A DNA stretch of 32,000 nucleotides from NCBI GenBank assembly GCA_039809905.1, contig JBDHVY010000001.1, forward strand, positions 570,001 through 602,000, given 5' to 3'. This document shows, piece after piece, positions 1 through 5,812 of the stretch; the stretch's first letter is position 1, and each line of letters opens with the position of its first letter. Under the pieces are notes generated by a model. The model was given only the letters and a program-made list of their open reading frames with translations. It made no database searches and had not been told where the DNA came from. Position numbers and translations under genes: made by a program. Source of the stretch: Candidatus Babelota bacterium. GTDB lineage: Bacteria > Babelota > Babeliae > Babelales > Vermiphilaceae.

Positions 1-593
1 TCGTATACTCTTTTTTTTATTTCAGCATACATTGCTTCTTCAATAGTTCGACCACAGCTTAAGAATTTAATACAATCAATAGCATCAATAAGTCGACCTA
101 ACGAATATTTTTCTATGATGCTTGTTATGTTATTTTTTTGTGACAATGTATCTTGACCCTCAAGATATTGCGTAAAAATAGCATAAATATCTTTAATCAC
201 TCTATTAGAATAAGAAAGCGGAATTTCAATCTTTTCCGATGAATCAGGACCTTCTATCATGTCTTTTAAAGTATCACTCACCTCAAGTACACGCTGCGAA
301 AAATAAACTCCCTCAGATGAGAGCTCATTGGGATCACTTGAATACACAAAAATTTCATTGTTTTTAAATTCTGGCTGCACTTGTTTATCAACCGTTTCAA
401 CGGACGATGCTTCTTTATTAAGTCTTTCAACAAAAGATGCTATCTCTTTCATTTGCCTCAATCGTAGATACTCAGGAAGAAGAGATTGAGGCAAAACTTC
501 ATCATCTTTATTTTCCATTCCTGCGACATCACAGGAAACACATAACACAATTAAACACAGTAAATAGAACTTTTTATTGCTGAAATAATTCAT
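1..593 (-). CDS. Leader-bearing Skp1/BTB-like domain protein, N-terminal 197 aa only (3' end runs off the window). Third member of the paralog family at 1571-3541 and 3707-5731
   Basis: Absent from the supplied ORF track because it is edge-truncated. My own translation from the ATG at 593-591 reads MNYFSNKKFYLLCLIVLCVSCDVAGMENKDDEVLPQSLLPEYLRLRQ...EIFVYSSDPNELSSEGVYFSQ...KIEIPLSYSNRVIKDIYAIFTQYLEGQD...LGRLIDAIDCIKFLSCG, and the frame stays open to position 1. A GAGGA Shine-Dalgarno sits 5 nt upstream. The sequence aligns block for block with the N-termini of the two downstream paralogs. Confidence 0.7.
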   Translation of the reverse strand, partial: MNYFSNKKFYLLCLIVLCVSCDVAGMENKDDEVLPQSLLPEYLRLRQMKEIASFVERLNKEASSVETVDKQVQPEFKNNEIFVYSSDPNELSSEGVYFSQRVLEVSDTLKDMIEGPDSSEKIEIPLSYSNRVIKDIYAIFTQYLEGQDTLSQKNNITSIIEKYSLGRLIDAIDCIKFLSCGRTIEEAMYAEIKKRVY

Positions 594-765
594 ACGATTC
601 CTCAATTAAACTCATTTAATTATCAAAATCCTATCAAGTATTTATCATAAGATATATTCAAAAAGAAAATCAATAAATCGTTTTTATAGTAAAAAACAGC
701 TGAAAAGGTACTTGATTTCTTAAACAAAAAGAATATAGAGTTAGATCATATTTTAATCAAAAGGA

Positions 766-1533
766 ATGCATATGCCTTATTATATGATAGAGTTGGCGAC
801 CATATTGCTTATGTATCTTATAGGAATGGTTACATTGACGTGTTATAAAAAAGACACTAGCATTGGAAATTTCACCTGGGGTGGAGGAGTTTTACTGGTT
901 TCTTTATATACTTTTTTTCGCATGAGTAGTTTTTTATTGCAACAAATACTCGTTACTGCTTTTATTGGAGCATGGGCAATCCGTCTTATCGCATACATAT
1001 ACATACGGTATACCGGCAATGATCCACGATTTGTTACCTGGAAAAAACAAGGAATTAAAGGACTTATTATAAACATCGTATGGATATTTGGTCAGATTAT
1101 CATGATTGCCATTATGAGTTACCCAATTGTATTAATTAATTTTTACAATAATCCTCATCCTTTTTCTATGTTTGATATGCTTGGACTTGCAATGTGGGTA
1201 TGTGGATACTATTGGGAAGCTGTTAGCGATCAACAATTATTTAATTTTATACGCAATCCACTCAATAAAGGTAAAATTCTTCAATCAGGTTTATGGCATT
1301 ATTCTCGTCACCCAAATTATTTTGGAGAAAGCCTGATGTGGATAGGAATTTATGTTCTTGCACTTTCAGTACCATATGGCTGGACTGCGTGTATTACTCC
1401 TATCACCATAACTTTTTTATTAAGATTTGTAACAGGTGTTCCTTTACTTGAAAATGCAATGAAAGATAATCCTGAATATCAAAAATATAAAGCAAAAACA
1501 AACACGTTTATTCCTTGGTTTGCCAAAGAGTAA
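766..1533 (+). CDS. Polytopic membrane protein, DUF1295 / steroid 5-alpha-reductase-like (ICMT-clan) family
   Basis: 255-aa ORF with multiple hydrophobic segments. It carries the family-typical motif GLWHYSRHPNYFGESLMWIGI. An AAGGA SD lies 6 nt upstream of the ATG. Confidence 0.8.
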   Translation: MHMPYYMIELATILLMYLIGMVTLTCYKKDTSIGNFTWGGGVLLVSLYTFFRMSSFLLQQILVTAFIGAWAIRLIAYIYIRYTGNDPRFVTWKKQGIKGLIINIVWIFGQIIMIAIMSYPIVLINFYNNPHPFSMFDMLGLAMWVCGYYWEAVSDQQLFNFIRNPLNKGKILQSGLWHYSRHPNYFGESLMWIGIYVLALSVPYGWTACITPITITFLLRFVTGVPLLENAMKDNPEYQKYKAKTNTFIPWFAKE

Positions 1534-1570
1534 CAGTGCTTTTTAACCAAATATAAGCCAACAAGATTTA

Positions 1571-3541: not shown

Positions 3542-3622
3542 ACTTTTCCCTCGATTAGATTTTTTTAATTATCAGAGATTTATTATACGATTAGCATAAA
3601 AAATATTCAAACAGAAAATCAA
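2860..3622. repeat. Copy 1 of a roughly 760-bp near-identical direct repeat (5' module of paralog A plus its upstream region)
   Basis: Aligns without indels to 5050-5812 at a constant offset of 2190 bp. The 81 non-coding nt at 3542-3622 are identical to 5732-5812. The encoded first 229 aa differ at 16 positions by my count. Confidence 0.85.
3582..3610 (-). promoter_or_regulatory. Putative sigma70-type promoter of paralog A
   Basis: On the minus strand: TTGAAT (3610-3605), a 17-nt spacer, then TATAAT (3587-3582), about 40 nt upstream of the ATG. The same sequence is duplicated exactly upstream of paralog B. Confidence 0.45.
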
Positions 3623-3706
3623 CTAATCGATTTTATAGCGAAAATAGACTCAGTCATTCCTCGTTTTTCAAAAATTAACCACACTTTTTTAACCAGACGA
3701 AATCTA

Positions 3707-5731
3707 TCATTGTGGCTTTTTGTTCAGCCACGCTTTAGTTTTAGCTATCCAACGATTGATAAAATCAGGCAATATTAATGAATAAGTATTTGGCAATAAA
3801 TCTAATGGTGCGTATAATAATTCTGGATCCACCCGACCTGATATATCATCATCTGGACGTATTGGATCAGATGGCCACAATAGATCGGATAATAATTTCT
3901 TCATATTATTTGGTAGATAAACTAAATCTTCATTTTTTATGGGATTCTCTGCCAAACATAGTTGGTAGAGAGATCTGATCAAAACTGAATCATAATCTTT
4001 TATTTTTTCCAACATTTCATTTTCTTCTTTAGTTAGCAAGGTCCATAGCGTTAAATGAGCATATTCTTTACCCAGAAAACCTGCTCGAATACTCCCTGTT
4101 ATTAACTTCATGCCATCATGACTCAATGCAGCTGAAGAATAATACGCATCATCAGATCCTGGAATGACATAGTATGTTATCTCATCATAATTGCCTATAT
4201 CCCATAGCAAAATAGAATTATTTCCATCTTTGTAATTTATGGAGATCATTTCTCTTTTATTTTTTGGATTCAAGAGTATCTCATGTCTTTCATGAGTCAT
4301 TCTTCTCAATATAGGACTATAATAAATCTCTCCATACTCGTTAATAGCCTGCTTTCTCATCTTTTTACAGTTTATTTTATTCTTTTCATCATCAACAATA
4401 TTACACAAAGCAAGCACTTTGTTATCTCCGATCTGACCACTACAAATAATTTGAGTCCCATCTGAATTAAACCTTACTTCGCCATAAGCATTCTGAAAAG
4501 TCTGATTGTCCTGAGCAATAACACTATTGGTAGATACATCACCAATTGTTATATTTCCCCAGCCCTCTACAACGATTTGAGTCCCATCATGATTAAACGC
4601 CACAGAAAATGCACCACTTTTTGAGATTTTGTCCAAAACAGTAGATGTTACTGCTTCTATATTTTCTATATCCCACAAAACAAGATTATTTTGACCCCTA
4701 CTACCAGATCCAGCTACAATTTTTGTACCATTCGGACTAAATGCAATACATGAAGGGTACCGAAAAAGCCCCACAAGCTCAGTTATTTTTCCAGAAGCTA
4801 TTTCTCGAATATGTAGATTCTGCCTCATACCTGCATAAGCAACGTATTTACCATTAGGACTCAATACCAATGAATAGATACGCGAATCAGCATGAAATGT
4901 ACTCAATATGTCTCCTTTTAAGTCGCATGTAGTAACATCTCCGGGCGAAGGCATATCTCCAAAAAAAATATGCCTATCATCAGAGCTAAATGCCAGACCC
5001 ATAAAGCACCTTAAATGGTCTGCTAATGCCTGTGTTATTAATGTTTTTTTTCTTTGTTGCGCATATTTTTCAATGATAAGTTTTTTTAACCATTTTTTGA
5101 TTGACTCAACCATTAATAATTTTTGTAAATCAGAATTTAATTCTGCGAATTTCTTATTTTTTATAATCGAACCATCTTGACGTATTCTTTGTTTTATTTC
5201 ATCACAAATGATATCTCTAATAATCAAATCACAACCCAAGAACTCAATACAATTAGCACCATCAATAAGCTGGTCAAACGAGTATTTTTTTATGAGATTT
5301 TCAATGTTTTTCTTCTTTGATAATTCATCTTTACCATTAAAATATGCTATTAAAATAGTATGAGCAGCTTTAATTGCACTATTAGATTGATGAATCTTAA
5401 CTTCCTTAGCTTCTTTCAATTCTTCAAGATGAATATCATCTTTCATTTCTTTTAGAGTTCTACTCAAGTTAAATATATCTTGTGAAAAACAAACTCCCTC
5501 AGATATAAATTCATTGGGATCAATTGAATAGACTAATATTTCATCAGCATTACATTGCGGTTTTATCTGTTTATTAAGAGCTTGGATAAAAGCAGCAACT
5601 TCTTCAGATTGTTGAGATTTTAGATATTCAGGAATATCTTTATCGTCCATTCCTATTACATCATAAGAAATGAATAAACCAAGCAGACAAAGTAAAGACA
5701 AACAAAGTTTTTTAAACCTGAGGCCAATCAT
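3707..5731 (-). CDS. Leader-bearing Skp1/BTB-like + WD40 beta-propeller protein with conserved C-terminal module (paralog B, 674 aa)
   Basis: Long ORF with the same SD and leader as paralog A. The N-terminal 229 aa are 93 percent identical to A (213/229 by my count). The central propeller is strongly diverged, for example FSVAFNHDGTQIVVEGWGNITIGDV and NNLVLWDIENIEAV. The C-terminal 109 aa are about two-thirds identical (75/109). Confidence 0.85.
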   Translation of the reverse strand: MIGLRFKKLCLSLLCLLGLFISYDVIGMDDKDIPEYLKSQQSEEVAAFIQALNKQIKPQCNADEILVYSIDPNEFISEGVCFSQDIFNLSRTLKEMKDDIHLEELKEAKEVKIHQSNSAIKAAHTILIAYFNGKDELSKKKNIENLIKKYSFDQLIDGANCIEFLGCDLIIRDIICDEIKQRIRQDGSIIKNKKFAELNSDLQKLLMVESIKKWLKKLIIEKYAQQRKKTLITQALADHLRCFMGLAFSSDDRHIFFGDMPSPGDVTTCDLKGDILSTFHADSRIYSLVLSPNGKYVAYAGMRQNLHIREIASGKITELVGLFRYPSCIAFSPNGTKIVAGSGSRGQNNLVLWDIENIEAVTSTVLDKISKSGAFSVAFNHDGTQIVVEGWGNITIGDVSTNSVIAQDNQTFQNAYGEVRFNSDGTQIICSGQIGDNKVLALCNIVDDEKNKINCKKMRKQAINEYGEIYYSPILRRMTHERHEILLNPKNKREMISINYKDGNNSILLWDIGNYDEITYYVIPGSDDAYYSSAALSHDGMKLITGSIRAGFLGKEYAHLTLWTLLTKEENEMLEKIKDYDSVLIRSLYQLCLAENPIKNEDLVYLPNNMKKLLSDLLWPSDPIRPDDDISGRVDPELLYAPLDLLPNTYSLILPDFINRWIAKTKAWLNKKPQ

Positions 5732-5812
5732 ACTTTTCCCTCGATTAGATTTTTTTAATTATCAGAGATTTATTATACGATTAGCATAAAAAATATTCAA
5801 ACAGAAAATCAA
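5050..5812. repeat. Copy 2 of the roughly 760-bp direct repeat (5' module of paralog B plus its upstream region)
   Basis: See 2860-3622. Identity ends exactly at 5812, which overlaps the stop codon (5809-5811) of the convergently ending FkbM-like gene. Confidence 0.85.
5772..5800 (-). promoter_or_regulatory. Putative sigma70-type promoter of paralog B
   Basis: Exact duplicate of the TTGAAT-17-TATAAT element of paralog A (minus strand: -35 at 5800-5795, -10 at 5777-5772). Confidence 0.45.

Follow-up and report, generated by a model that had tools for sequence, protein, structure and literature searches.

What would a bacterium do with a protein that carries, behind an export-type leader, a Skp1-like module joined to a WD40 propeller? 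The question is raised by three paralogous genes at the start of a 32,000-nucleotide stretch of DNA (hereafter the window, meaning the whole of that stretch). Paralog A (P0001; 1571..3541, minus strand) encodes a protein of 656 amino acids (aa) made up of a leader, a Skp1-like module, a seven-bladed WD40 propeller and a C-terminal module, and paralog B (P0002; 3707..5731, minus strand) one of 674 aa with the same architecture. The window holds the first 197 codons of paralog C (1..593, minus strand), which cover the leader and most of the Skp1-like module; the full-length protein (P0003, 710 aa) extends past the window edge. Paralogs A and B are 62% identical (E 1.5e-248) and A and C 36% identical (E 8.5e-99), and on these comparisons the paralogy of the three is well beyond chance. 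A preliminary description, made from the letters of the DNA, had called them a tandem same-strand family; three paralogs are indeed present and all lie on the minus strand, but they are not strictly tandem, as a gene for a DUF1295/steroid-reductase-like membrane protein (766..1533, plus strand) sits between C and A. The peptide blocks quoted in that description were all recovered in the sequences and in the alignment.

The answer that we reached has parts of unequal strength. Judged by family-level profiles, the N-terminal module (N-module) is homologous to the POZ part of Skp1, comprising strands 1-3 and helices H1-H6. That these single-chain Skp1-like and WD40 proteins are exported and act as substrate receptors of host cullin-RING ubiquitin ligases we put at about an even chance.

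A Skp1-like module recognised at the level of the family

In paralog A the module, consisting of a Skp1-like POZ part and family-specific connecting helices, occupies aa 61-228 (2858..3361, minus strand), as delimited by profiles and by an AlphaFold model with a pLDDT of ~88-98. A word-index search with the full protein returned the three paralogs as the only full-length relatives, the rest being generic WD40 proteins, and a profile built from the three N-modules found nothing significant in the PDB. When the same three-sequence profile was used for an exhaustive hidden Markov model (HMM) search of 1.84 billion cluster representatives, 44 proteins were found at E<=1e-3, 16 at E<=1e-10. The family alignment on which the Skp1 tests were run contains 45 sequences, namely the three window paralogs and 42 relatives.

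A search of all PDB sequences with the 45-sequence profile (hmmsearch) gave SKP1 for each of the 23 best matches (best E 4.1e-6, 29.7 bits), with profile positions 23-132 aligned against SKP1 residues 14-136, and these were followed by yeast Skp1, Elongin C and plant SKP1-like proteins. The sole recurrent Pfam family was Skp1_POZ (PF03931), matched by 16 of the 45 members with a best E of 1.3e-5. Comparison of the family profile with single sequences by hhalign gave 79% for SKP1 (E 1.5e-5), 22% for Elongin C (E 1e-3) and 0.07% for the BTB domain of PLZF. With hmmalign, strands (b) and helices (H) b2, H1, H2, b3, H3, H4, H5 and H6 of SKP1 fell in register with paralog A; over H1-H2, S.TIKTMLED in SKP1 is matched by S.TLKEMKDD, and the H5 stretch of paralog A reads LIDGANCIEFLNC. 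Beyond H6 the module ends in two family-specific helices of ~40 residues (F.ELNPDLQKLLM..P....LK.LIIKKYA..RKK), where conservation within the family is highest and nothing in SKP1 corresponds.

The preliminary description had placed a Skp1/BTB-like module behind the leader and expected Pfam to find either PF00651 or PF03931/PF01466 there. Its Skp1-like part is upheld by the profile match to SKP1, by the family-wide occurrence of PF03931, by hhalign and by the predicted order of secondary structure. The other two Pfam families gave no such support: PF01466, which represents Skp1 helices H7-H8, is not among the 25 families most recurrent in the 45 members and has no match in the three window paralogs, and canonical BTB/POZ, which we considered as a candidate identity and rejected, is likewise missing from the 25 most recurrent families (PF00651; 45 members, E<=1) and is represented by the negligible hhalign value for PLZF. 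By these sequence comparisons the N-module is Skp1/Elongin-C-like and not a canonical BTB domain.

Predicted structure and the propeller

An AlphaFold2 model of paralog A was computed from a 33-sequence family alignment and superseded a first run with 3 sequences, in which the pLDDT was 57.6 and the N- and C-modules were poor. The model has a mean pLDDT of 81 and a pTM of 0.77, and residues 60-230 lie mostly at 88-98, with a single 10-residue block at 68. The predicted elements of the N-module are b64-69, b80-83, H84-87, H91-99, b110-113, H117-132, H136-148, H152-164 and H169-185, after which come short helices at 187-196; one long helix (200-223) then leads into the propeller. The modelled order, b-b-H-H-b-H-H-H-H-H-H, is that of Skp1 up to H6.

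In the same chain, the Skp1-like module (aa 61-228) is succeeded by a seven-bladed WD40 propeller at aa 229-546 (1904..2857, minus strand), identified by Pfam, the model and Foldseek. Its 28 modelled strands form 7 blades of 4 strands each, and Pfam WD40/propeller matches span aa ~250-545; PF00400 scores 34.6 bits in paralog B (cut-off 27) and 26.3 bits in A, beside numerous matches to propeller families. Foldseek against WD40 propellers gave E ~1e-16 and a target-normalised TM of ~0.8. The seven WD-type blades of the preliminary description are thus confirmed by an above-threshold Pfam match in B, by the strand count of the model and by the Foldseek score.

The leader and the residue that follows it

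The leader of paralog A (aa 1-27; 3461..3541, minus strand), MIDLRFKKLR-LSLLCLLGLFISY-DVVA|M, is signal-peptide-like by sequence. By inspection, all three paralogs have an n-region with K/R and then a hydrophobic core of 12-13 residues, after which a c-region of the form V-x-A/G abuts an invariant Met (DVVA|M, DVIG|M, DVAG|M). The basic n-region and hydrophobic leader noted earlier on each paralog are therefore present, with small residues at -3/-1. Given that a GAGGG Shine-Dalgarno sequence lies 6-7 nt upstream of the first ATG, the leader is translated. Leaders of the same kind occur in 40 of the 42 family members with an intact N-terminus, 33 of which have a small residue and a Met directly at the leader's end. 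It looks like a Sec-type signal peptide that signal peptidase I (SPase I) would cleave, and its core has too few residues to span the membrane as a stable anchor.

Such leaders are found in 28 of the 61 genes (46%) of the window and of two contigs that carry homologues, L002 and L065, and because so large a share of these genes carry one, the leader is not specific to effectors. In Chromulinavorax, signal peptides are present on 44% of coding sequences and on 78% of ankyrin-repeat proteins, and the delivery routes proposed for effectors of Dependentiae (TM6) are Sec export and outer-membrane vesicles (PMC6561590).

The Met straight after the leader (residue 28 of P0001) has a small residue in front of it (A|M, S|M, G|M or C|M) and is at least 90% conserved family-wide. 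The same arrangement was seen in unrelated leader-bearing window proteins at 15832-16356, 16366-17241 and 8072-8626, all on the minus strand (SCA|MDIL, SSS|MDLP and IRC|MEVE). Among the leader-bearing genes of the window, L002 and L065, 14 of 28 have it, against ~12% expected from composition by a rough estimate, and in the source genome D or E comes next. A preference of the signal peptidase, a host-like Met N-terminus and an internal start are all possibilities.

The C-terminal module and tail

Behind the propeller, paralog A has a conserved helical module at aa 547-604 (1730..1903, minus strand) with the motif TLLT.EE..L....NY....L.YQLCL....LP..MKKLLS.L.WP., modelled as four helices with a pLDDT mostly of 75-96. 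It is followed by a variable linker and an amphipathic, Trp-containing C-terminal helix, LPDFINRWIAKIKSFWIK (together 1574..1729, minus strand; from the model and composition); residues 605-638 are predicted to be disordered and the helix comes after them. The preliminary description had a conserved C-terminal module of ~110 aa, and conservation does extend through all three paralogs, but across the wider family it is confined to the first ~60 aa, where the helical part has the motif TLLT.EE..L....NY...Q..L.YQLCL ... F..LP..MQ.LL..L.

No Pfam or PDB family matches the C-terminal module. An F-box was considered for it and for the connector ('LNPDLQKLLM...') and was rejected, with hhalign below 1% against an F-box profile validated on the PDB and no Pfam F-box match (PF00646/PF12937). 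A SOCS box was considered as well, since in WSB1/WSB2 a WD40 propeller is likewise followed by a short C-terminal helical box (there a SOCS box, which binds Elongin C) and since 'L..L.QLCL' and 'LP..M..LL' resemble a BC box and a Cul box by eye. The profile comparison does not support the resemblance: hhalign against a SOCS-box profile validated on the PDB gave 0.8% and E 0.069, in the expected register and not significant, and Pfam SOCS_box (PF07525) had no match in 33 members. Against helices H4-H8 of the N-module, the C-terminal module gave 1.7% and E 0.03 by hhalign, which is not significant, together with weak internal HMM matches; these are suggestive only of a partial duplicate of H4-H8.

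The frequency of Trp in the last 15 residues is 0.090 across the family, against 0.013 overall, an enrichment of ~7-fold. Many members end in a Trp-rich and frequently cationic tail such as KGWFSGWW, and the tails of paralogs A (1574-1640, minus strand) and B (3710-3776, minus strand) are amphipathic, as in LPDFINRWIAKIKSFWIK, with a hydrophobic moment of 0.55. Going by composition, the tail might bind membranes or act as a sorting signal.

A constant 5' cassette and divergent propellers

Paralogs A and B differ very unevenly along their length. The region upstream of A (3542..3622, minus strand), with a promoter-like TTGAAT-17-TATAAT (3582-3610) and a GAGGG ribosome-binding site, is the same as that upstream of B (5732..5812, minus strand; promoter-like site at 5772-5800, with a ribosome-binding site). 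From 82 nt upstream of the ATG to the end of the Skp1-like domain (aa 186), DNA identity is 96-99%, dipping to 93% in the 27-codon leader, and it is 90% over the connecting helices (aa 187-228). In this 5' cassette ~3% of identical codons differ synonymously, whereas the propellers are 42% identical as protein and 58% as DNA, and 44% of their identical codons differ. The comparison indicates that a constant 5' cassette, in front of old and divergent propellers, has recently undergone gene conversion or partial duplication.

The family proteins are mostly 580-710 aa long and share one plan, with leader, N-module, WD40 repeats and C-terminal helical module. Variants exist: P0157 has three tandem N-modules without a propeller, and P0166 has two N-modules. 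A scan of genome contigs for the N-module gave no match. Three contigs with homologues (L002, L065 and L067) have two family genes apiece. L002 and L065 have a GC content of 35-38% and ordinary bacterial neighbours, namely recA, infC, rplT and rny on L002 and hisS, alaS, pth and ompH on L065; the second member lies near the first on L002 (16685-18967, minus strand) and in tandem on L065 (7936-9825, plus strand). L067 is a 3-kb contig with family genes only, where the products of the adjacent genes at 2-1084 and 1126-2724 are built from two and three Skp1-like modules in tandem and lack a propeller; the C-terminus of P0157 is KKWFWQRW. Because the genes on L067 repeat the module without a propeller, we take it to be a mobile, repeatable cassette, and multi-copy arrays appear to be the rule for the family.

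Viral contigs scanned for LNPDLQKL[LIM] held no family member, only a weak partial match in a phage open reading frame (ORF). This ORF of 189 aa (LLNCIHVY ... FFKSLNPDLQKLL) lies beside a family A DNA polymerase gene on the phage-like IMG/VR contig L068 (9853-10422, minus strand) and matches the second half of the N-module HMM weakly (E 4.6e-5); as it was found by a pattern scan the match is partly by construction, and it may be chance.

Proposed role and alternatives

In the scheme that we favour, the protein would be exported via Sec and released by type II secretion or in outer-membrane vesicles, as has been proposed for other Dependentiae effectors, and inside the protist host it would provide a cullin-RING ubiquitin ligase with a substrate receptor made of one chain. 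Its Skp1-like domain would attach to a host cullin, CUL1 being the most likely, at the N-terminal domain of that cullin, making host Skp1 and an F-box unnecessary, and the propeller would bind a host protein that would then be ubiquitinated, or sequestered when the complex is unproductive. Gene conversion would keep the adaptor cassette constant among the paralogs, and the diverging propellers would provide differing target specificities.

Docking on a cullin is suggested because Skp1 and Elongin C are themselves cullin adaptors. It was further reasonable to propose an adaptor role because a POZ domain with a propeller is the design of the single-chain adaptors of CUL3-RING ligases (CRL3), which poxviruses have copied (PMC3597819, PMC6484134), and because the best viral fold matches are BTB/POZ and WD-repeat proteins of Mimiviridae, which have the same kind of host. 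An effector role fits in that Dependentiae are parasites of protists whose repeat-protein effectors typically have signal peptides (PMC6561590). Taken together, our analysis suggests that the family probably hijacks the host's protein-degradation machinery.

Several points weigh against this scheme. Taken singly, paralogs A and B have no Pfam POZ/Skp1 match, and paralog C, the only window protein to match Skp1_POZ itself, does so weakly (E 0.07, 13.7 bits against a cut-off of 21.9); because single proteins miss the Pfam thresholds, the Skp1 homology of the window proteins rests on the family profile. The alignment with SKP1 ends at about residue 136, and the F-box-binding helices H7-H8 are not recognisably conserved. 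POZ domains may act as oligomerisation modules alone. Finally, export past the periplasm, entry into the host cytosol, docking on a cullin and recruitment of substrates by the propeller are steps that we infer.

If the POZ module oligomerised or packed, the proteins might be secreted scaffolds or tethers with no part in ubiquitination, their propellers and perhaps their Trp-rich tails binding host structures, for example membranes, cytoskeleton or mitochondria, and so reorganising the host cell. POZ/T1 domains do commonly oligomerise, and Pfam calls PF03931 a 'tetramerisation domain'. Dependentiae, moreover, remodel host mitochondria and membranes (PMC6561590). The Trp enrichment of the last 15 residues and the amphipathic end helix suggest membrane association, the F-box-binding helices of Skp1 are not conserved in the family, and some members consist of two or three POZ modules without a propeller. 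On the other hand, the similarity is specific to Skp1 and then to Elongin C, both of them cullin adaptors, and not to the oligomerising BTB domain of PLZF, and Skp1 is a monomeric adaptor in the Skp1-cullin-F-box (SCF) ligase. The combination of POZ and propeller is also a hallmark of cullin substrate adaptors (PMC3597819), and we consider a scaffold unlikely. A role closer to Skp1 itself would be that of a decoy, in which the N-module captures F-box proteins of the host, or further partners of Skp1, and titrates them or delivers them to whatever the propeller has bound, so that SCF is inhibited or rewired. Part of the F-box-binding core of Skp1, H5-H6, is aligned and conserved in the family (L..LI...N....LD), and effectors of bacteria and viruses often interfere with SCF, GogB and F-box effectors being examples (PMC3386239, PMC4197628). 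However, the helices by which Skp1 completes the F-box interface, H7-H8, have given way to family-specific ones running into the propeller, the stretch best conserved with SKP1 is the N-terminal POZ half (b2-H3), and the C-terminal module may occupy the groove in cis; a decoy seems to us quite improbable.

It was also necessary to consider that the proteins never meet a host, the leader taking them to the periplasm or outer membrane, where the propeller would take part in envelope biogenesis or nutrient capture. A Sec leader by itself reaches the periplasm only, nearly half of the genes on these contigs bear one and the window is without a dedicated effector secretion system; periplasmic propellers exist, and there are weak NCBIfam matches to TolB and PQQ-type propellers. 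The TolB matches, though, are far under threshold (18 bits, where 343 are required), no partner for a Skp1-like domain is known in bacteria, the WD40 class to which the propeller belongs is eukaryote-type, and a hydrophobic core of 12-13 residues is too short to anchor a protein stably in a membrane. In addition, multiple copies and fast-diverging propellers typify genes for interaction with a host, not housekeeping factors of the envelope, and a purely bacterial function is in our estimate very unlikely.

Beyond the cullin-receptor role as such, a bolder joint claim can be framed, which we advance tentatively and hold to be rather doubtful as a whole: that Dependentiae invented, or captured and remodelled, a Skp1-WD40 type of receptor that is absent from eukaryotes, is free of an F-box and docks on host CUL1, redirecting ubiquitination in the host; that its Sec leader is cleaved to leave an N-terminal Met; that a promoter, leader and Skp1 cassette, held constant by gene conversion, is combined with propellers that diversify as host targets change; and that the groove of the Skp1-like domain may be filled in cis by the C-terminal module, in place of an F-box.

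Comparison with known systems

The nearest relative by sequence is SKP1, the adaptor of SCF/CRL1 (PF03931 and PF01466). The family N-module is homologous at profile level to its residues 14-136, shares in the model its order of b1-b3 and H1-H6, and has in common with it the motifs S.T[IL]K.M..D, an IPLP-like b3 and L..LI.A.N.L.I/LD in H5. The family differs in its bacterial signal peptide, in lacking acidic loops, in H7-H8 being unrecognisable and in the fusion to a WD40 propeller, SKP1 being a free adaptor of 160 aa.

By fold, the closest viral proteins are the BTB/POZ and WD-repeat proteins of Mimiviridae, in which an N-terminal POZ fold is likewise followed by a WD40 propeller and which likewise form multi-copy families in parasites of amoebae. 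In the viral structure library they ranked first by Foldseek, the alignments running to 550-600 columns and covering the whole viral protein, and they include R739 (Q5UNZ2) and R786 (Q5UPR9) of Acanthamoeba polyphaga mimivirus (APMV) and proteins of Megavirus, Moumouvirus and Powai lake megavirus. The viral proteins, however, are annotated as canonical BTB, whereas the bacterial family matches Skp1 and not BTB; they are ~490 aa long, need no signal peptide and have no known equivalent of the C-terminal module. The arrangement of the domains differs, given that the root-mean-square deviation is high (13-20 Å).

A POZ-fold cullin adaptor and a beta-propeller receptor in one chain are also found in the BTB-Kelch adaptors of CUL3 (KLHL proteins; poxvirus A55, C2 and F3), which have been described as single-chain analogues of Skp1/beta-TrCP (PMC3597819) and by which poxviruses subvert host CRL3 (PMC6484134). 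Their propeller is of the Kelch type and is preceded by a long BACK domain and 3-box, where the bacterial family has ~40 helical residues, and their canonical BTB domain dimerises, whereas the bacterial family has no PF00651 signal. With the F-box/WD40 receptors on Skp1 (beta-TrCP1, FBXW7 and Cdc4), the common feature is a Skp1 fold, a helical connector and a seven- or eight-bladed WD40 propeller, and the bacterial protein would be such a Skp1-receptor complex in one chain; unlike these receptors, it has no F-box, the profile giving below 1% on both connector and C-terminal module.

Among bacterial proteins, the F-box/U-box effectors (Legionella AnkB/LegU1/LicA, Ralstonia RipG/GALA and the F-box protein of Babela massiliensis) resemble the family in belonging to intracellular or host-associated bacteria and, on the role proposed here, in being directed at the cullin-RING ligases of the host. 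Babela is itself a member of this phylum (PMC4378268), and other bacterial F-box/U-box effectors have been described (PMC4197628, PMC13243912). These effectors mimic the F-box receptor, need host Skp1 and carry a type III or type IV signal, whereas the present family would mimic the adaptor, brings its own receptor domain and has a Sec leader.

Genomic setting

The source of the DNA is, by the relationships of its NusA (25863..26936), a small-genome Dependentiae (TM6) bacterium. In a scan of one genome per GTDB species, NusA was 86% identical to that of the metagenome-assembled genome (MAG) MFD04434.bin.1.151; it is 84% identical to that of 'candidate division TM6 bacterium SOIL31', 79% to that of a Candidatus Babeliales MAG and 59% to that of the complete genome of Candidatus Dependentiae bacterium Noda2021. 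All but one of its 62 relatives are annotated as or resemble Dependentiae, the remaining one being a Wolbachia MAG at 34% identity. Those Dependentiae that have been cultured live as obligate parasites inside the cells of amoebae and flagellates (PMC4378268, PMC6561590).

The GC content of paralogs A, B and C is 30-33%, that of the whole window 34%. A gene for an FkbM methyltransferase comes after paralog B, and no Rfam family was found in the window. Further leader-bearing secreted candidates in the same 32 kb are a class-3 lipase/Tle3-like hydrolase (11335-12189, minus strand), a P-loop kinase resembling chloramphenicol phosphotransferase (16366-17241, minus strand), a clostripain (C11) peptidase (23090-24592, plus strand) and two small proteins (6585-6911, plus strand; 8072-8626, minus strand) for which no Pfam family match was found. 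Another leader-bearing WD40 propeller protein of 387 aa (17371-18534, plus strand), with the leader MKHALVVFLLYSFPSIVFTA|ETN, is without a Skp1-like module and has no specific similarity to the three-paralog family (BLASTP E 0.2).

Significance

Mimicry of ubiquitin-ligase components is central to intracellular pathogens. To our knowledge, the known bacterial mimics copy the receptor end (F-box, U-box, RING or HECT-like) and rely on host Skp1. A full-text literature search for Skp1 together with Dependentiae found nothing relevant, and other literature searches turned up no described bacterial Skp1-like effector. F-box, WD40 and ubiquitin-system proteins have already been noted in TM6 genomes, in papers that mention no Skp1-like fusion (PMC4378268, PMC4776705). 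We therefore rate the bacterial Skp1-WD40 form as new, and not as a new category, since mimicry of cullin-RING ligase components by effectors is a known strategy.

If the proposed role is true, bacteria that have their own version of the adaptor, Skp1, fixed to a propeller for substrate binding would have arrived at another solution, similar in principle to BTB-Kelch in poxviruses and BTB-WD40 in mimiviruses, and the protein would offer a natural minimal design for targeting CUL1 independently of an F-box. The architecture of POZ and WD40 is already known in giant viruses that infect amoebae, and the family extends beyond the source genome; as these bacteria and giant viruses occupy a common niche, one may ask whether evolution was convergent or genes were exchanged inside amoebae. 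The proteins would, on the same proviso, provide a testable handle on how the almost unstudied Dependentiae control their protist hosts.

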